Shown one piece after another: positions 1 through 5,663 of a DNA stretch of 5,663 nucleotides (position 1 is the stretch's first letter; every line of letters begins with the position of its first letter). Below the pieces are notes generated by a model. It was not told the origin of the DNA and made no database searches. It was given only the letters and a program-made list of their open reading frames with translations. The translations under genes and the position numbers were made by a program. The stretch covers positions 1-5,663 of IMG/VR virus record IMGVR_UViG_2703718818_000005, one strand, 5' to 3'. This DNA comes from a virus (lineage: Duplodnaviria > Heunggongvirae > Uroviricota > Caudoviricetes).

Positions 1-60
1 GGTCAGGTATCCCGTCGTGACCAGGAGCGCGCGCTGGCGTGCTGGGGAATCGACAGATAA
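1..60 (+). CDS. 3' end of an upstream gene, probably a phage endolysin (lysozyme-like C-terminus); 5' part lies outside the window
   Basis: Frame 1 reads GQVSRRDQERALACWGIDR then TAA at 58-60. The RR-x-x-ER-x-x-x-C-W-G tail resembles C-termini of lambdoid prophage lysozymes such as RrrD/R21-type, recalled from memory. Its position upstream of Rz/Rz1 fits a lysis cassette. Only 19 codons are visible, so the call is weak. Confidence 0.4.
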   Translation, partial: GQVSRRDQERALACWGIDR

Positions 61-166
61 GCAGAATATTTTGCTGAAAAATGACGTTGATCAACGCGGG
101 CAGATAACACGAAATCCTGCAAACTGGCAAAATGTAAGTGAATAAAGTCAGGCAGATTGTTTCACG

Positions 167-199
167 CAGAGGCACCGTAATGGTGCCTTTGTCATTTAT
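167..199 (+). terminator. Terminator-like hairpin downstream of the endolysin-like gene
   Basis: Inverted repeat AGGCACC (170-176) / GGTGCCT (182-188) with loop GTAAT, extendable to a 10-bp stem (167-191) with one G-U pair, followed by the T-rich run TTGTCATTTAT. The U-tract is interrupted, so this is at best a weak intrinsic terminator. Confidence 0.3.
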
Positions 200-333
200 G
201 CGCTTCGCACAAGCGTAAATAAACCAAAGAACCTTTCAGGATGAGCCCTGGTGGATAACCGGCAGTGGTCTGGTTAACCCTCTTTGGGCTGGTTATTCCT
301 GTGCGCAGGGTTCATCACTAAAAGGAATCAACC

Positions 334-1029
334 ATGAAAGAGATGATTTCTGTCGATCATGAAATATCCATGAGTAGTCTGGATTTTCTGAATAACATTA
401 TTAACCCTATCCGGGTTGAGGCAGGGAAACCACCTCATGAACCGCGTAAGTTCCTTGCAAAAATTGAGGACGAACTTGAGCTTGAGGTAACCTGGAAAAA
501 ATTCCGGTTAAACAATAACCAGACAAGAACGGCATACTATGATCTGGATTTTGACCAGATGATGCTCGTTGGCATGAGAGAGTCAAAGGCCGTTCGTCGT
601 TCTGTGCTGGCAAGGCTCAAAGCGATGCATGGTATTCAGATCCCCCGGACTTTACCTGAGGCGTTGCGATTTGCGGCAAAACTGGCAGAACAGAAAGCAG
701 TGCTGGAAAATCAACTGGCAATAGCAGCGCCGAAGGCTGAATTTGTTGATAACTATGTTGAAGCATCTGGTCTGATGGGATTCCGGGAAGTTGCTAAGTT
801 ACTCGGTATCAAAGAAACCGATTTCCGGCTGTTTTTGTTGGAGAACGGAATAATGTATCGCCTCGCTGGAAAAATGACGCCTTACTCGCATCACCTGGAT
901 GCGGGGCGGTTTAGCGTGAAAACGGGCGAGGCGGGCAATGGTCATGCTTTTACGCAGGTTAAATTCACCCCAAAAGGTGTTCAGTGGATTGCTGGTCTGC
1001 TTGCTGCATGGAGAGCTACCGCAGCATGA
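334..1029 (+). CDS. Phage antirepressor-like protein with a C-terminal KilAC (ANT) domain; N-terminal domain unassigned (possibly Rha/AntA-like)
   Basis: 231-aa ORF with ATG at 334 and an AAGGA Shine-Dalgarno 7 nt upstream. The C-terminal half (VAKLLGI...FRLFLLENGIMY...PYSHHLDAGRFSVK...FTQVKFTPKGVQWIAGLL) matches the pattern I recall for KilAC domains (AK-LG, P-x-Q/H, G-F, T-x-KG-x-x-I). Needs an HMM search to confirm. Confidence 0.75.
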   Translation: MKEMISVDHEISMSSLDFLNNIINPIRVEAGKPPHEPRKFLAKIEDELELEVTWKKFRLNNNQTRTAYYDLDFDQMMLVGMRESKAVRRSVLARLKAMHGIQIPRTLPEALRFAAKLAEQKAVLENQLAIAAPKAEFVDNYVEASGLMGFREVAKLLGIKETDFRLFLLENGIMYRLAGKMTPYSHHLDAGRFSVKTGEAGNGHAFTQVKFTPKGVQWIAGLLAAWRATAA

Positions 1030-1121
1030 AGATGATAAAAATGGACTGGAAATTTTTGCTGGTCTGGCTGATTCCGTTTTTATGGGTGGTTGCCCGGTTA
1101 ATTACTGCTATTAATGGGTAA
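1026..1121 (+). CDS. Candidate micro-ORF, 31-aa single-pass membrane peptide (MKMIKMDWKFLLVWLIPFLWVVARLITAING)
   Basis: ATG at 1026 overlaps the stop of the upstream gene (ATGA). It has a Lys-rich N-terminus followed by a ~20-residue hydrophobic helix and a TAA stop at 1119-1121. No clear Shine-Dalgarno; translational coupling would be needed. Not in the ORF track because of its size. Confidence 0.3.
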   Translation: MKMIKMDWKFLLVWLIPFLWVVARLITAING

Positions 1122-1123
1122 AG

Positions 1124-1255
1124 ATGTCAGACAAACTCATAATGCTGGCGAAGGGCCTTTGTGTAATCGTCGGTATTTCATTTTCACTAATGCTGGTTGT
1201 TCTTTTTCTTTCCATAGCCTGGATGGCGTTGAGTTCGGCAGGGCTGGTGGGGTGA
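1124..1255 (+). CDS. Candidate micro-ORF, 43-aa hydrophobic peptide (MSDKLIMLAKGLCVIVGISFSLMLVVLFLSIAWMALSSAGLVG)
   Basis: ATG at 1124 lies 2 nt after the stop of the previous micro-ORF; TGA at 1253-1255. Almost entirely hydrophobic, giving one long or two short transmembrane segments. It competes with the N-terminal part of the 86-aa track ORF 1114-1374 in another frame. Confidence 0.35.
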   Translation: MSDKLIMLAKGLCVIVGISFSLMLVVLFLSIAWMALSSAGLVG

Positions 1256-1257
1256 CA

Positions 1258-1374
1258 GTGACTGATGACGACAATTTATTTAAACAGATGAGTACTGAAT
1301 TTATTCGGGCAACGGCATTTGCCATTCGCATTGTGGCAATTGCGGTTCTAATCCGGGAAATCCGCTGGTGGTGA
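1258..1374 (+). CDS. Candidate third micro-ORF (GTG start at 1258 or ATG at 1288), amphipathic/hydrophobic peptide ending ...MSTEFIRATAFAIRIVAIAVLIREIRWW
   Basis: Same frame as the 86-aa track ORF. GGTGGGG lies just upstream of GTG 1258. Its stop TGA 1372-1374 sits 1 nt before the methylase ATG. Start and reality are uncertain. Confidence 0.2.
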   Translation: MTDDDNLFKQMSTEFIRATAFAIRIVAIAVLIREIRWW

Positions 1375-1375
1375 A

Positions 1376-2143
1376 ATGAATAATAACTCTGCAAAACCGT
1401 TTCTCCCGTGGTTAGGAGGGAAGCGTCGTCTGGCAAAACATATTCTGCCGTTATTTCCTGAGCACACTCTGTATGTGGAACCGTTCTGTGGCGGTGCGGC
1501 ACTGTTCTTTATGAAAAAACCGAGCTGCGCTGAAATCATCAACGATATAAACAGTGATATCGTTAATCTCTACCGTGTGGTGAAGTACCACCAGGAGGAA
1601 TTTTCCCGCCAGTTTCAGTGGATGCTCGCCAGTCGTGAGATGTGGAATGAGGTGATAAATCAGCACACGGAGTACATGACGGATATCCAGCGGGCTGTCC
1701 GTTTCTTTTTTATCCAGAAGTGCGCGTATGGCGGAAGAGCATACAGTCGGGCATTTGGAGTTAAAACTCACAGACCGCAGATAATCCCCGGGAATACAGA
1801 GCAGTTATTGCAGGAAGCCCGTGATCGGCTGGCGCGGGCAACTATTGAACACCTTGACTGGGAGGTCTGTATCGCACGGTATGACCGCCCGACAACGCTG
1901 TTTTACTGCGATCCTCCGTATTGGTTGGATGGTGGTTACGGCATTGATTTTTCATTCTGCAATTATGAGCGCATGGCAGAACTTGCCCGCACAATAAAAG
2001 GCAAAATGATTATATCCCTGAACGATACGCAGGAAATGAGACGATTGTTTGAGGGGATGAATATTCATCATGTTGCTCATCGTTATACTGTACCACGTGG
2101 TAAGACAAGCAGTGTCAGCGAGCTGATAATCTGCAATTTCTGA
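1376..2143 (+). CDS. Dam-family (D12 class) N6-adenine DNA methyltransferase, phage-borne orphan methylase
   Basis: 255-aa ORF. N-terminal PWLGGKRRL, AdoMet-binding motif I FCGGAALFF (about 1485-1511) and catalytic motif IV DPPY at codons 179-182 (nt 1910-1921). No restriction endonuclease partner is visible in the window. Confidence 0.9.
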   Translation: MNNNSAKPFLPWLGGKRRLAKHILPLFPEHTLYVEPFCGGAALFFMKKPSCAEIINDINSDIVNLYRVVKYHQEEFSRQFQWMLASREMWNEVINQHTEYMTDIQRAVRFFFIQKCAYGGRAYSRAFGVKTHRPQIIPGNTEQLLQEARDRLARATIEHLDWEVCIARYDRPTTLFYCDPPYWLDGGYGIDFSFCNYERMAELARTIKGKMIISLNDTQEMRRLFEGMNIHHVAHRYTVPRGKTSSVSELIICNF

Positions 2144-2151
2144 CAGGGGGC

Positions 2152-2628
2152 ATGGTGAGCATAAACCGAATTCTTTCCGCGTTTACTGTTATTCTGCTGG
2201 TGGTCTGTGGTGCGCTTAGTCTGGGGCTGAATCATTACCGCGATAACGCCATCACCTACAAAGCGCAGCGCGATAAAAAAGCCAGAGAGCTGGAACAGGC
2301 GAATGCCACCATTACTGACATGCAGGTGCGCCAGCGTGATGTTGCTGCGCTCGATGCAAAATACTCGAGGGAATTAGCCGATGCGAGAGCTGAAAATGAA
2401 ACTCTGCGCGCTGATGTTGCCGCTGGTCGTAAGCGCCTGCGGATCAACGCCACCTGCTCCGGTACCGTGCGTGAAGCCACCGGCACCTCCGGCGTGGGCA
2501 ATGATGCCGCCGTCGAACTCTCTCCGGTTGCTGGACGAAACGTTCTCGGTATCAGAGACGGAATCATCAGCGACCTGGCTGCATTGAGAATGCTTCAGGA
2601 ATATATCCGCACTCAGTGTATTAACTAG
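2152..2628 (+). CDS. Rz: Rz-like i-spanin (inner-membrane spanin subunit)
   Basis: 158 aa. An N-terminal transmembrane helix (ILSAFTVILLVVCGALSLGL) is followed by NHYRDNAITYKAQRDK...MQVRQRDVAALDAKY...DVAAGRKRL, which is near-colinear with lambda Rz as recalled. GGGGG Shine-Dalgarno before ATG 2152, 8 nt after the methylase stop. Confidence 0.92.
   Translation: MVSINRILSAFTVILLVVCGALSLGLNHYRDNAITYKAQRDKKARELEQANATITDMQVRQRDVAALDAKYSRELADARAENETLRADVAAGRKRLRINATCSGTVREATGTSGVGNDAAVELSPVAGRNVLGIRDGIISDLAALRMLQEYIRTQCIN
2381..2587 (+). CDS. Rz1: Rz1-like o-spanin (outer-membrane lipoprotein), embedded in the +1 frame of Rz
   Basis: 68-aa ORF wholly inside Rz. Signal peptide MRELKMKLCALMLPLVVSAC with lipobox V-S-A-C (Cys codon 2438-2440), then a proline-rich mature part CGSTPPAPVPCVKPPAPPAW that parallels lambda Rz1 CVKPPPPPAW. 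GAGGGA lies 8 nt upstream of ATG 2381; ATG 2396 is an alternative start. Confidence 0.85.
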   Translation: MRELKMKLCALMLPLVVSACGSTPPAPVPCVKPPAPPAWAMMPPSNSLRLLDETFSVSETESSATWLH

Positions 2629-2651
2629 TATTTTTGTTATTCGGAGAATGC

Positions 2652-2864
2652 ATGAAGAAATTACTGGTAACCGTAAAGCCTTTTCAGGGAACAATTCCGT
2701 TCCGTATTTTGCAGCGTGGTCGTGTTCTTGTTGAAGGTTCGTTCAGTGGTAAATGTACGCAATTACACTCCCGGACCTTTCAGGTGAATGCCACGAATGA
2801 AGAGCTAACCGTTGAGTGTACGATGAATGCCGCTAAATGCCGCATGGTATCCGCTGCATTTTGA
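2652..2864 (+). CDS. Hypothetical 70-aa protein between the spanins and cos (MKKLLVTVKPFQGTIPFRILQRGRVLVEGSFSGKCTQLHSRTFQVNATNEELTVECTMNAAKCRMVSAAF)
   Basis: ATG at 2652 with a GGAGAA Shine-Dalgarno 6 nt upstream; the track ORF begins at an in-frame TTG at 2634. No family recognised by eye. Three Cys, no obvious signal peptide. Confidence 0.5.
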   Translation: MKKLLVTVKPFQGTIPFRILQRGRVLVEGSFSGKCTQLHSRTFQVNATNEELTVECTMNAAKCRMVSAAF

Positions 2865-3087
2865 GCGACCTTATTATCCATGCGCGGTATTGTCGCCGTA
2901 TTCCCGTATTAACAGAGACCGCAGCCCGACAGGGAGACTCCTCTGCGCGAGTGTGCGGGGATAATCAAAAACGATACACACCGGGGTTTACCGCGTTAAC
3001 GGAGCGCGGCGTTGTCCCCTCATGGTCGCTGGTCCGGTGCGATGGTGGAAGAAACTGGATTTTGTTGCAACTGATAACCATTATCAT

Positions 3088-3117
3088 TTTCGCGGGTCCT
3101 TTCCGGCGATCCGGGCC
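3088..3117. other. cosQ-like cos-proximal segment upstream of cosN
   Basis: TTTCGCGGGTCCTTTCCGGCGATCCGGGCC is near-identical to the lambda right-end sequence TTTACGGGTCCTTTCCGGTGATCCGACAGG that I recall preceding cosN, where cosQ resides. Exact cosQ boundaries are not determinable from memory. Confidence 0.4.
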
Positions 3118-3139
3118 GTTACGGGGCGGCGACCTCGCG
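3118..3139. other. cosN, terminase nicking site; 12-nt cohesive end GGGCGGCGACCT at 3124-3135
   Basis: GTTACGGGGCGGCGACCTCGCG matches the lambda cosN core as recalled, and the 12-mer at 3124-3135 equals the lambda cohesive end. The following ~25 nt (CGCGCGTTTTCACTATTTATGAGATTTT) also track the lambda left end. It sits immediately upstream of a Nu1/A terminase pair. Confidence 0.85.
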
Positions 3140-3174
3140 CGTTTTCACTATTTATGAGATTTTTTGAGGGGGGT

Positions 3175-3183
3175 GGTTGTTGT
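3175..3183 (+). repeat. R3-like repeat GGTTGTTGT
   Basis: Exact 9-mer, about 50 nt to the right of the cohesive-end start, analogous in position to lambda R3. Confidence 0.5.
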
Positions 3184-3233
3184 TTAATTGTTTGGTATAT
3201 CTAATTGATAAGTAAGGTGAAAATAAAATAAAT

Positions 3234-3242
3234 ACAACAACC
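3234..3242 (-). repeat. R2-like repeat, inverted copy (ACAACAACC on the top strand)
   Basis: Exact reverse complement of GGTTGTTGT, 59 bp from the first copy. Confidence 0.5.
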
Positions 3243-3311
3243 TTACGATGTGTTTTGATGTCGTCAATGCGAAAAATGTCAATGATATCAAATGGTTTTG
3301 CAAAAACACAT

Positions 3312-3320
3312 GGTTGTTGT
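3312..3320 (+). repeat. R1-like repeat GGTTGTTGT
   Basis: Exact 9-mer, 33 bp upstream of the proposed Nu1 start codon. Confidence 0.5.
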
Positions 3321-3352
3321 ATCGCTTTTTATCGATGACTTATGGAGAGGAG

Positions 3353-3859
3353 ATGGCCTTTTTATTGAATAAAAGTGATATGGCCTCCTCCATCGGTATC
3401 TCTGTTCAGGCATTTGATAAATGGGGCGTTCCTCCTGTTGAACGTCGGGGGAGGGAAGTTTTATATGACGTTAAAACTGTACTGGAGATAGATCGCGAGC
3501 GGCGACAACACAATCAGAGAACACCTGATGACGGGGGAGAACTGGAGGAAAGGCTGCTTCGGGCCAGAGCTGAACTGACAGAAGAACAGGCTGTAGCTCA
3601 AAAACTTAAAAATCAGGTAACCGAAGGTAAGCTCATTGATTCAGACTTCTGCGTTTTCGCCCTCAGCAAACTGGCGATGGCATTGTCCAGTACGCTTGAT
3701 TCCATTCCGTTATCCATGCAGCGACAGTTCCCGGATTTAACGCCACGTCATATTGACCATCTGAAAACCCTTATTGCAAAGGGCGCAAATCAGTGTGCGC
3801 GGGCAGGGGATAAATTACCGGATTTGCTGGATGAATATATCAGAGCAACAACTGAATAA
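3353..3859 (+). CDS. nu1: Terminase small subunit, Nu1-like
   Basis: 168 aa from ATG 3353, preceded by GGAGAGGAG. Aligns by eye with lambda Nu1: EVLYD, FCVFALSKLAMALSSTLDSIPLSMQRQFPDLTPRHIDHLK versus lambda FCTFVLSRIAGEIASILDGLPLSVQRRFPELENRHVDFLK, and an EYI motif near the C-terminus. The track ORF start at 3248 is an in-frame upstream extension running into cosB; 3335 is another in-frame ATG without a Shine-Dalgarno. Confidence 0.88.
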   Translation: MAFLLNKSDMASSIGISVQAFDKWGVPPVERRGREVLYDVKTVLEIDRERRQHNQRTPDDGGELEERLLRARAELTEEQAVAQKLKNQVTEGKLIDSDFCVFALSKLAMALSSTLDSIPLSMQRQFPDLTPRHIDHLKTLIAKGANQCARAGDKLPDLLDEYIRATTE

Positions 3860-5663
3860 TATGATGGCTGCCGTTTCGGTTGCGCTGCAGCCTCTGGTCA
3901 GAGTTGTACCGATGACGGCAGTTGAATGGGCTGATCAAAATTATTATTTGCCTAAAGACTCCTCATACGGTGACGGCGAATGGAAAACGCTGCCATTCCA
4001 GATCGCCATCATGAACAGCATGGGGAATGATCAGATCCGCACTGTTAATCTGATTAAATCTGCCCGTGTTGGCTATACAAAGATGTTGCTGGGGGTGGTC
4101 GGGTATTTTATTGAGCATAAATCCCGAAACAGTCTGCTTTTTCAGCCCACGGATTCTGCCGCTGAAGATTTTATGAAGTCTCACGTGGAGGCGACGATTC
4201 GGGACGTGGCATGCCTGAAAGATCTTTCCCCGTGGCTGGGTCGTAAACATCGTGACAATACTCTCACGCTGAAACGCTTTTCATCGGGGGTGGGCTTCTG
4301 GTGCCTGGGTGGTGCGGCAGCAAAAAACTACCGTGAAAAATCCGTGGACGTGGTCTGCTATGACGAACTTTCCTCGTTCGAGCCGGATGTCGAAAAAGAG
4401 GGCTCGCCAACCCTGCTGGGGGATAAGCGTATTGAGGGGTCGGTGTGGCCAAAATCCATTCGCGGCTCGACGCCTAAAATCAAAGGCTCCTGCCAGATCG
4501 AAAAAGCGGCCAACGAGTCGGCGCATTTCATGCGTTTTTATGTGCCCTGCCCGCACTGTGGGGAGGAGCAGTATCTGAAATTTGGCGATGAATCCACGCC
4601 TTTTGGCCTTAAATGGGAGAAGGACAGCCCCGAAAGCGTTTTCTACCTCTGTGAACATCATGGCTGCGTGATCCATCAGTCTGAGCTTGACCAGAGCAAC
4701 GGGCGGTGGATCTGTGAAAATACGGGGATGTGGACCCGTGACGGTCTGACGTTTTTCAGCGCCGCGGATAATGAAATTCCGCCGCCGCGCTCCATCACGT
4801 TCCACATCTGGACGGCGTACAGTCCGTTCACCACCTGGGTACAGATAGTCTATGACTGGCTGGATGCACTGAAAGATCCCAACGGCGTGAAAACCTTTGT
4901 GAACACCACGCTGGGCGAGACCTGGGAAGAGGCCGTGGGCGAAAAACTCGATCACCAGGTACTGATGGATAAGGTTGTGCGTTACACGGCGGCGGTGCCT
5001 GCCCGGGTGGTTTATCTGACGGCGGGCATTGACTCGCAGCGAAACCGTTTTGAGATGTATGTCTGGGGATGGGCACCGGGAGAGGAAGCCTTTCTGGTGG
5101 ATAAAATCATCATTATGGGGCGTCCCGATGAGGAAGAGACGCTGTTACGTGTGGATGCGGCGATCAACAAAAAATACCGTCATGCAGACGGAACCGAAAT
5201 GACCATTTCCCGTGTCTGCTGGGACACCGGGGGGATCGATGGCGAAATCGTTTATCAGCGGTCAAAAAAACACGGTGTTTTCCGGGTGCTGCCGGTAAAA
5301 GGCGCATCTGTCTATGGCAAGCCGGTGATCACCATGCCAAAAACCCGCAATCAGCGGGGCGTGTATCTGTGTGAAGTGGGGACGGACACCGCAAAAGAAA
5401 TTCTCTATGCCCGTATGAAAGCCGATCCCACGCCTGCGGATGAAGCCACGTCGTATGCCATCCGTTTTCCTGATGATCCGGAGATTTTTTCGCAGACAGA
5501 GGCGCAGCAACTGGTGGCGGAGGAGCTGGTGGAGAAGTGGGAAAAAGGAAAGATGCGTCTGTTGTGGGATAACAAAAAGCGGCGTAACGAAGCGCTGGAC
5601 TGCCTGGTGTATGCCTACGCGGCATTACGTGTGTCTGTGCAACGCTGGCAGCTTGATCTGGCT
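3831..5663 (+). CDS. A: Terminase large subunit, gpA-like; 3' end beyond the window
   Basis: Open frame from ATG 3831 to the window end with no stop (611 codons). It starts MNISEQQ (lambda A starts MNISNSQ) and contains the P-loop-like KSARVGYTK (nt 4056-4082), VDVVCYDEL, the Cys/His cluster CPHCGEEQYLKFGD...FYLCEHHGC, HIWTAYSPFTTWVQIV and KKRRNEALDC, all colinear with lambda gpA as recalled. It overlaps the Nu1 3' end by 29 nt. Confidence 0.93.
   Translation, partial: MNISEQQLNNMMAAVSVALQPLVRVVPMTAVEWADQNYYLPKDSSYGDGEWKTLPFQIAIMNSMGNDQIRTVNLIKSARVGYTKMLLGVVGYFIEHKSRNSLLFQPTDSAAEDFMKSHVEATIRDVACLKDLSPWLGRKHRDNTLTLKRFSSGVGFWCLGGAAAKNYREKSVDVVCYDELSSFEPDVEKEGSPTLLGDKRIEGSVWPKSIRGSTPKIKGSCQIEKAANESAHFMRFYVPCPHCGEEQYLKFGDESTPFGLKWEKDSPESVFYLCEHHGCVIHQSELDQSNGRWICENTGMWTRDGLTFFSAADNEIPPPRSITFHIWTAYSPFTTWVQIVYDWLDALKDPNGVKTFVNTTLGETWEEAVGEKLDHQVLMDKVVRYTAAVPARVVYLTAGIDSQRNRFEMYVWGWAPGEEAFLVDKIIIMGRPDEEETLLRVDAAINKKYRHADGTEMTISRVCWDTGGIDGEIVYQRSKKHGVFRVLPVKGASVYGKPVITMPKTRNQRGVYLCEVGTDTAKEILYARMKADPTPADEATSYAIRFPDDPEIFSQTEAQQLVAEELVEKWEKGKMRLLWDNKKRRNEALDCLVYAYAALRVSVQRWQLDLA

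Follow-up and report, generated by a model that had tools for sequence, protein, structure and literature searches.

A chain of micro-genes between the antirepressor and methylase genes in the late lysis operon of a Shiga toxin (Stx)-type lambdoid prophage

Three small reading frames between the KilAC and Dam genes

Virus record IMGVR_UViG_2703718818_000005 (positions 1 to 5,663, the whole stretch of DNA analyzed here and referred to below as the window) carries a KilAC-domain antirepressor gene followed by a Dam methyltransferase gene. The interval between the two is tiled by three small open reading frames (ORFs), ORF1 to ORF3, which had been described in a first-pass annotation made from the letters alone; following direct reading of the sequence, their coordinates and junctions were found to be right. 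These frames, and the longer frame that competes with two of them, are as follows (lengths in amino acids, aa):

1026-1121, plus strand: ORF1, 31 aa, MKMIKMDWKFLLVWLIPFLWVVARLITAING, with a single hydrophobic span; its start overlaps the KilAC stop codon as ATGA
1124-1255, plus strand: ORF2, 43 aa, MSDKLIMLAKGLCVIVGISFSLMLVVLFLSIAWMALSSAGLVG, predicted single-helix inner-membrane peptide (phrog_4906; WP_001280923.1 family)
1258-1374, plus strand: ORF3, 38 aa from GTG 1258, or a conserved 28-aa core, MSTEFIRATAFAIRIVAIAVLIREIRWW, from ATG 1288; a paralogue of ORF3b of related phages
1114-1374, plus strand: 86-aa composite of the ORF2 region (out of frame) and ORF3, judged not to be a gene

The KilAC stop codon (TGA, 1027-1029) and the ORF1 start codon (ATG, 1026-1028) share the ATGA at 1026-1029, and ORF1 runs for 31 codons to position 1121. 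ORF2 begins 2 nt past the ORF1 stop and extends for 43 codons from ATG 1124 to the TGA at 1253-1255. ORF3 may start at GTG 1258, 2 nt past the ORF2 stop (38 codons), or at ATG 1288 (28 codons), and its stop codon (1372-1374) lies 1 nt ahead of the Dam ATG at 1376. Complete tiling of these 349 nt by ATG- or GTG-initiated ORFs of at least 25 codons is expected in approximately one of 5000 composition-matched Markov-1 sequences. Spacing within the chain is at most 3 nt in the window, and in every context examined the genes are either at most 11 nt apart or joined by an ATGA or GTGA overlap; furthermore, the 3' codons of each micro-ORF carry a Shine-Dalgarno site for the gene that follows. These observations support tight coupling of the ORFs. 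The predicted composition of the first two peptides, a basic N-terminus followed by a single hydrophobic span, was also borne out: in Kyte-Doolittle analysis with 19-residue windows, both are well above 1.6, the customary cutoff for a membrane span, with best windows of 2.26 for ORF1 (residues 11-29) and 2.77 for ORF2 (residues 13-31). The chain of micro-genes is real, and most of it had been catalogued before.

ORF2 is a member of an existing uncharacterized family, and its existence is thus not new. It matches phrog_4906 across residues 1-43 (E-value: 1.7e-23), is 95% identical to a 43-aa coding sequence (CDS) annotated by the Prokaryotic Genome Annotation Pipeline (PGAP) in a related locus (WP_001280923.1, in L002) and is 63-67% identical to the 933W/Sakai type of the protein (XECs191, EDL933_1392). 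A search of 5.8 billion proteins placed the family in 64 protein clusters, each of which comes from Escherichia coli or Shigella, bears the name "hypothetical protein" and is 70% identical or more; no distant homologue or named relative was found among these sequences. The sole match outside of E. coli and Shigella in a scan of one genome per species was a 328-nt contig of Xanthomonas pisi (L129, NZ_JPLE01000251.1), which is most likely assembly contamination. In the re-annotated EDL933 genome, EDL933_1392 lies directly upstream of Rz (EDL933_1393), near Bor (PMC4765031). In Sakai grown in LB medium, XECs191 has an RNA value of 30 reads per kilobase per million (RPKM), a ribosome footprint RPKM of 12.6, a ribosomal coverage value of 0.43 and a coverage of 0.55; it was classed as "real" and predicted to be an inner-membrane protein with one span (Hücker et al. 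2017, PMC5597208). XECs191, EDL933_1392, WP_001280923.1 and phrog_4906 thus resemble ORF2 in belonging to the same family, in having one predicted membrane helix and in standing immediately upstream of Rz, but carry an N-terminal extension of 1-6 residues because the upstream gene in those cases is another Ant type. No mention of WP_001280923 was found in the literature, and a review on small proteins of phages leaves these peptides out. A few phage records in GenBank carry annotations of ORF1 and ORF3 (that of PhiR5_1 has all of the micro-ORFs), and PGAP calls neither. The statement that the frames are too short for a standard ORF finder is thus right only in part.

Conservation of ORF2 was assessed in 119 IMG/VR loci, found with a degenerate DNA pattern within ORF2, and nine GenBank loci. 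The exact 43-codon frame and the same stop are kept in 124 of 126 loci, the other two sharing a 14-nt deletion, and an ATG stands at codon 1 or codon -1 in all of them. The ORF2 Shine-Dalgarno site is AAGGGAGGA where the gene follows ORF3b (duplex energy -11.3 kcal/mol) and usually AAGGGG where it follows ORF1 (-8.4 kcal/mol). When the 35 unique variants are joined in a spanning tree, the 139 substitutions include no stop-creating change in the ORF2 frame (3.8 expected, P = 0.013), and only five introduce a polar or charged residue into the span as compared to 12.1 expected (P = 0.01); core hydropathy is 1.9-2.5 in all 30 protein variants. The ratio of nonsynonymous to synonymous variation (pN/pS) is 0.53 for ORF2, versus 1.11 and 0.81 for the two other forward frames and 0.48 and 0.10 for the Rz and R controls, respectively. 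The block V14..G17-I-S-F-S-L-M23 is invariant in 26 protein clusters, a figure that is partly ascertained. An AlphaFold2 model based on an alignment of 26 homologues predicts one helix over residues 2-38 with a mean predicted local distance difference test (pLDDT) score of 90. ORF2 shows no similarity to ORF1, ORF3 or the N-terminal membrane span of Rz. Based on these results, ORF2 is very likely to be a translated gene.

ORF1 is found in two contexts and has 31 codons in both. The version that follows KilAC begins MKMIKMD..., while that which follows R (MISQLPNWKFLLVWSIPFLWVVSQLIVAIKG, 31 aa) begins MISQLPN... and has an AGGGAG Shine-Dalgarno site 9 nt before its ATG. Residues 8-31 are common to the two versions, while the first seven codons are unrelated and the ATG is at the same distance. 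Over the common core, pN/pS is 0.32, compared with 0.87 and 0.95 for the remaining frames, and we consider ORF1 a probable translated gene. In phages without ant, R is followed by a terminator-like hairpin, AAAAACCCCGTTTGTTGGCAGCAAGCGGGGTTTTGTGTTT, and the AGGGAG site and ATG of ORF1 lie 3' of it. An alternative 70-aa call ("ORF1long", the "TPR_REGION" protein of 569R3) was rejected: its N-terminal half reads through this hairpin, which makes it unlikely to be real, and the 31-codon ORF with its AGGGAG site is a better fit.

For the third frame, the conserved unit is the 28-codon frame from ATG 1288, which corrects the earlier alternative of 1258. The core in the window has its counterpart, MSAELIRAMAFAIRIVAIAVLVWAIRWW, in phages that carry ORF3 ahead of Rz, and pN/pS in this frame is 0.32 versus 0.57 and 1.12 in the others. 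ORF3 and ORF3b (VTDDISRALAFAIKWVAVGIAVSPMLYGLAKLVIALKS) are paralogues that align from residue 1 (z = 6.5 against shuffles). The first ten codons from GTG 1258 comprise four that are the start of a deleted ORF3b (GTG-ACT-GAT-GAC) and six that are the ORF3 leader, which is non-coding elsewhere; in the window, deletion of the ORF3b body has fused its start in frame to this leader. GTG 1258 has a Shine-Dalgarno site provided by the last codons of ORF2 (-6.8 kcal/mol) and ATG 1288 has none, so a 38-aa product is plausible in the window. The last codons of ORF3, CGC-TGG-TGG-TGA, form the Shine-Dalgarno site GGTGGTGA of whatever gene comes next, Dam in the window or Rz in other phages. The best Kyte-Doolittle window of ORF3 is 1.90, and arginines at positions 7, 14, 23 and 26 suggest an amphipathic peptide as opposed to a clean membrane span. 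Like ORF1, ORF3 probably is translated.

The 86-aa frame at 1114-1374 is present as described, and the view that it is an artefact was upheld. Its ATG at 1114 results from a G-to-T single nucleotide polymorphism (SNP) that is private to the window (the codon is AAG in the other 115 loci), the frame contains stops in nine of 35 variants, five stop-creating events fall in it, its pN/pS is 1.11, its Shine-Dalgarno duplex is weak (-2.4 kcal/mol) and nothing corresponds to its N-terminal half where ORF2 directly abuts Rz. The frame does match phrog_3246 (E-value: 2.3e-36), and in one architecture it is open for 90 codons and annotated by gene callers; phrog_3246 was built from automatic gene calls in near-identical prophages, and the match reflects a frame that is open into ORF3b. 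It is thus barely credible that translation yields this 86-aa product and that the micro-ORFs are spurious. The conserved units are the micro-ORFs, on strong evidence for ORF2 and on moderate evidence for ORF1 and ORF3, and the conflict of frames with phrog_3246 and with the 70-aa ORF1long call is resolved here.

The same G-to-T change at 1114-1116 also alters AAGGGG to AATGGG in the ORF2 Shine-Dalgarno site and the penultimate residue of ORF1 from K to N (...AIKG to ...AING). A second competing frame, an antisense ORF of 121 aa (1137-1502, minus strand) that covers ORF2, ORF3 and the start of Dam, was rejected because it has no conserved start and runs into Dam. It is open in all 35 ORF2 variants (pN/pS 0.54) because stops in this frame would require Tyr, His or Gln codons on the opposite strand, and ORF2 lacks these.

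The lysis operon and the exchange of micro-genes

The window is part of the late lysis operon of a Stx-type lambdoid E. coli prophage. Its other features are as follows:

1-60, plus strand: 3' end of the endolysin gene R (R21-like lysozyme), ...GQVSRRDQERALACWGIDR*, the same 3' end as that of the annotated "lysozyme R" in L004 and other loci
166-192, plus strand: terminator-like G+C-rich hairpin with a U-rich tail, 3' of R (11-bp stem, z = -2.5 against shuffles)
334-1029, plus strand: KilAC-domain antirepressor gene, a moron between R and Rz (Pfam PF03374, E-value: 2.7e-28), likewise annotated in L002
1376-2143, plus strand: Dam, a D12-class N6-adenine DNA methyltransferase gene, also a moron (Pfam PF02086, E-value: 4.4e-27)
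2152-2628, plus strand: Rz i-spanin gene (Pfam PF03245, E-value: 3.2e-39)
2381/2396-2587, plus strand: Rz1 o-spanin gene, MKLCALMLPLVVSAC..., nested within Rz in the +1 frame (identified by translation); the product has a lipobox and is proline-rich in its mature part
2652-2864: 70-aa ORF 3' of Rz, MKKLLVTVKPFQGTIPFRILQRGR..., whose counterpart in strain IBS28 is a hypothetical protein (WP_000736383.1) and which has no Pfam match
3' of this 70-aa ORF: a cos-like region, then lambda-type small and large terminase genes

As the window opens with the final 60 nt of R, closing ...WGIDR*, it lies downstream of the holin-endolysin pair. In related annotated loci a class II holin gene is followed by lysozyme R, ant, the small ORFs and Rz, with an optional moron ahead of R and an optional dam ahead of Rz; together with the R end and the Rz/Rz1 genes, this order places the micro-ORFs within the late lysis operon. 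The holin/endolysin pair has been classed as a pinholin and a signal-anchor-release (SAR) endolysin by Pinto et al. (2021, PMC8136144), who make no mention of the small ORFs. The interval from R to Rz commonly takes up extra genes; related phages without ant carry a different terminator-like hairpin at the same spot after R (approximately 210-250 in L004).

A simple consensus scan detected no promoter-like site on either strand within 1026-1374, none within 587-2101 and none in the R-to-KilAC spacer. Only two matches were found in positions 1-3400 (586-559, minus strand, and 2102-2130, plus strand), which is fewer than shuffled sequences give. No terminator-like site was identified within or immediately beside 1026-1374, and there was no Rfam match at E ≤ 1 anywhere in the window. 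The promoter and Rfam negatives, resting on simple scans, are not absolute.

ORF2 occurs in at least six architectures:

R-ORF1-ORF2-ORF3b-ORF3-Rz
R-(60-aa ORF3b-type protein)-ORF2-Rz
R-AntN-ORF2-Rz
R-KilAC-ORF1-ORF2-Rz
R-AntN-ORF2-ORF3-Dam-Rz
R-KilAC-ORF1-ORF2-ORF3b-ORF3-Rz

It has five kinds of upstream partner (ORF1, ORF3b, two Ant types and a broken ant) and four kinds of downstream partner (Rz, ORF3b, ORF3 and a second methylase). In every architecture it lies between R and Rz, and its stop falls at, or shortly ahead of, the start of the following gene, in most cases Rz; in the window, ORF3 and Dam are interposed. Homology breakpoints coincide with the ends of ORF2: Stx1 phages match the window over 900-1255 and continue directly into Rz, while the match to strain IBS28 begins at 1119. 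What the present comparison adds to earlier catalogues is the picture of a shuffled micro-gene pool, with ends that fall at recombination joints, and its relation to the coupling of Rz. ORF1 and ORF3 are part of this shuffled pool as well, with thinner support.

In phage vB_EcoS-689R5 (L132, 3025-3040), the same R and Rz genes meet in a GTGA overlap with no micro-ORF between them. This is presumably the ancestral junction, into which ant, dam and the micro-ORFs were later inserted in Stx-type phages. In Stx1-type loci, ORF2 overlaps the GTG of Rz exactly as R does in vB_EcoS-689R5, and the two overlaps together indicate that ORF2 has replaced R as the upstream partner of Rz.

A search of 5,426 complete E. 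coli genomes and 50,697 phage records recovered no instance of the KilAC-ORF1-ORF2-ORF3-Dam combination, and the region 900-1500 of the window is matched in 925 of the E. coli genomes; the set is a new mosaic only, made of modules that were already known. Dam was inserted jointly with ORF3. The segment 1256-2158 acts as a single inserted module with GGTGA microhomology on both sides, its junctions being ...GGGGTGA|CAGTGACTG and CATGGTGA|GCATAAACC, and Stx1-type loci without it have the uninterrupted sequence ...GGGGTGAGCATAAACC. In L038, a different methylase with a DPPY motif (MKCVLYSGDCLDV...) lies directly 3' of ORF2, at the same position as the module.

Two further arrangements were observed. 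In Stx2d phage Stx2_112808 (L130, 3300-3870), ant is frameshifted into two CDSs and the adjacent downstream homologue of ORF2 is intact. In loci of the second architecture above (L010, L013, L038 and others like them), the ORF3b helix forms the C-terminus of a 60-aa protein, MAK(C/Y)KRILLRLTMKNGLELKAPVTDD..., with a basic cytoplasmic head; this membrane helix thus occurs in two forms, alone as a micro-ORF product and at the end of a larger protein.

Possible roles of the micro-peptides

The explanation we favor for this arrangement is that each of the three frames is a micro-gene of its own, transcribed together with the others in the phage late (lysis) operon. All three would be drawn from a pool of shufflable micro-genes (ORF1, ORF2, ORF3 and ORF3b), apparently limited to Stx-type lambdoid prophages of E. 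coli, that fills the moron-prone gap from the SAR-type endolysin gene R to the i-spanin gene Rz. A Q-antiterminated late transcript would carry the ORFs, and translation would be handed down the chain by termination-reinitiation. ORF1 and ORF2 are each predicted to form one inner-membrane helix with a cytoplasmic N-terminus, based on the positive-inside rule and in agreement with the inner-membrane prediction for XECs191, and ORF3 may form a short amphipathic or hydrophobic helix. The conserved ORF2 face G17-x-S19-x-S21 is a candidate helix-packing surface. The peptides could then tune lysis timing or efficiency, in a non-essential manner, at the pinholin, SAR endolysin or spanin steps in the inner membrane, while ORF2, ending at the Rz start, may keep Rz translation coupled despite the insertion of ant and dam morons between R and Rz. 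With the reality of the genes and a role in lysis weighed together, we lean modestly towards this explanation; modulation of lysis by the peptides, taken on its own, is a tentative suggestion.

Several observations weigh against this explanation. The loci were found via a pattern in ORF2, such that their diversity is ascertained, and recombination confounds the spanning-tree counts, which are hence approximate. When the codons of the search pattern are dropped, pN/pS for ORF2 rises to 0.67, indicating weak purifying selection; the excess of synonymous changes is marginal (P = 0.057), and variable columns are distributed over codon positions 1, 2 and 3 as 22, 18 and 25. The two loci with the 14-nt deletion are disrupted copies of ORF2, ORF1 has a premature stop six codons before its end in four of 50 loci, three loci have a truncated ORF3 and at least three a frameshifted ORF3b. 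The evidence for ORF1 and for ORF3 comes, in each case, from essentially two haplotype groups. With regard to initiation, the SNP in the window weakens its own ORF2 Shine-Dalgarno duplex to -3.7 kcal/mol (versus -8.4 kcal/mol), and ATG 1288 of ORF3 has no such site (+0.4 kcal/mol). The footprint signal in Sakai is low and was obtained from uninduced cultures (PMC5597208). None of the micro-peptides has a match in Pfam (E ≤ 1), NCBIfam or PADLOC. Finally, ORF2 is present in 192 phage records, compared with 391 for this R and 667 for this Rz. These counts and the absence of micro-ORFs from vB_EcoS-689R5 argue that the peptides are not essential and that any role in lysis would be accessory; the holin-accessory reading of the first-pass annotation is plausible in that sense.

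The best-surviving alternative, which we nevertheless think unlikely, is that the micro-ORFs are translated but that their peptides have no function, selection acting on an open frame that ends at the next start and so couples translation to Rz or Dam. The GTGA overlap of R and Rz in the moron-free phage vB_EcoS-689R5 and the overlap of ORF2 with the Rz GTG in Stx1-type loci are what such a relay predicts, as are the Shine-Dalgarno sites for the next gene within the 3' end of each ORF. Peptide constraint is also weak (pN/pS 0.53-0.67), and the best-conserved features are the integrity of the ORFs and the position of their stops. A relay, however, requires neither 43 codons nor a membrane span, and hydrophobicity in ORF2 is kept beyond expectation (P = 0.01). 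It would likewise not call for the invariant (if partly ascertained) V14 to M23 block or for the lowest pN/pS to fall in the proposed frame for all three ORFs, and in several contexts Rz has a Shine-Dalgarno site of its own and an 8-nt spacer. On the retained hydrophobicity, the invariant block and the pN/pS values, we slightly prefer accessory peptides to a pure relay, as far as sequence comparison can guide the choice.

A still less probable alternative is that the peptides are moron-type products of benefit to the host (involved in superinfection exclusion or in membrane stress or fitness), unrelated to lysis and riding with ant and dam. The locus is indeed an insertion hot-spot for morons, with an antirepressor, a methylase and terminator-like hairpins after R; presence of the micro-genes is patchy and their range narrow (E. 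coli and Shigella plus the lone Xanthomonas-labelled contig), and low-level RNA and footprints are seen in uninduced Sakai. Spontaneous induction can account for the Sakai signal, however, and no sigma-70-like promoter was found close upstream in the consensus scan, nor was there a PADLOC match. In addition, ORF2 keeps its place beside Rz whatever moron is present and is intact where ant is broken, as in Stx2_112808.

The resemblance to type I toxins raised in the first-pass annotation did not hold up. Small hydrophobic depolarizing toxins under antisense RNA control would fit the size and composition of the peptides (31-43 aa, a basic N-terminus and one hydrophobic helix), but the simple scans placed no promoter-like site on either strand within or adjacent to 1026-1374 (or anywhere in 587-2101), no Rfam match was obtained, the antisense frame at 1137-1502 is a by-product of ORF2 codon content, and the ORFs lie in a tightly packed polycistronic late operon with spacers of at most 3 nt and do not stand alone behind a long structured 5' untranslated region, so this reading is very improbable.

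Comparison with known lysis and toxin systems

One precedent for the proposed accessory role is Lcc6 of Shewanella phage LambdaSo, a 65-aa protein that is required for lysis alongside a pinholin, a SAR endolysin and Rz/Rz1 (bioRxiv 10.1101/2024.01.23.576932). Like the micro-ORF peptides, Lcc6 is a small single-span membrane protein from a lambdoid phage with a pinholin, a SAR endolysin and Rz/Rz1 (bioRxiv 10.1101/2024.01.23.576932), and it acts at the membrane step, the comparison with ORF1-3 being by description only. The phage context is matched as well, in that related loci encode a class II holin, a lysozyme and Rz. Lcc6 differs in being strictly required for lysis, in being encoded far from the lysis cassette and in having a 43-aa cytoplasmic tail, while ORF1-3 are encoded within the cassette, are nearly devoid of soluble parts and, judging by vB_EcoS-689R5, seem to be dispensable. 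A second precedent is the Mu releasin gp25 (DUF2730), a small membrane-tethered protein that is encoded beside the spanin genes and controls SAR endolysin release (Chamblee et al. 2022, PMC9239132). Unlike ORF1-3, it has a cytoplasmic domain, for which the three peptides are too short, and none of them matches DUF2730 or any other Pfam family at E ≤ 1; Mu also has no holin, in contrast to the class II holin of these phages.

Type I toxins such as Hok, Ldr, TisB, Ibs and Zor resemble ORF1 and ORF2 in size, in their hydrophobic single helix and in their basic N-terminus, but the micro-ORFs are embedded in an operon, and no promoter or antisense RNA of their own was found in the simple scans. Holins and antiholins (lambda S105/S107 and S21 68/71) share with the micro-ORF products a small size, an inner-membrane location and a place in the lysis cassette. 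The micro-ORF products differ from them in having a single span and no charged C-terminal tail (the last residues are ...LITAING in ORF1 and ...SSAGLVG in ORF2), and the ORFs lie downstream of R and ant in loci of a type that already has a class II holin upstream of R. Membership among the spanins was also rejected: ORF1-3 have no lipobox and no periplasmic domain, and Rz and Rz1 are separately present. Assignment to the holins, releasins or spanins thus fails on missing defining features, and assignment to the type I toxins on the organization of the locus.

Shiga toxin has no secretion signal and exits the cell at prophage lysis. Any tuning of the pinholin, SAR endolysin and spanin pathway in Stx phages would therefore also tune toxin release, and about half of the phage records with this endolysin have ORF2. 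It is conceivable, if improbable, that ORF2 and its partners ORF1, ORF3 and ORF3b make up a hitherto unrecognized fourth class of lysis cassette component in Stx phages that sets the timing of lysis. If so, the peptides would pack against the pinholin, the SAR anchor or the Rz span, would time the release of Shiga toxin and would be exchanged as micro-cassettes. A lysis-timing role of the Lcc6 kind is the most interesting reading that remains, albeit a doubtful one; should the peptides prove to be mere translational relays, the result would be an ordinary one. As shuffled cassettes that end at the start of the next gene, with one natural phage that has none, the micro-genes are a clean and inexpensive genetic target. 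There is also a caution for annotation, as phrog_3246 and the 70-aa ORF1long rest on calls that are in the wrong frame or cross a terminator hairpin.

One further likeness was observed at the start of ORF1, where Met-Lys-Met-Ile-Lys-Met (1026-1043) recalls a motif of holin S. In lambda, the dual start of S is Met-Lys-Met. As this motif does not occur in the MISQLPN... version of ORF1, its likeness to lambda S is probably coincidental.

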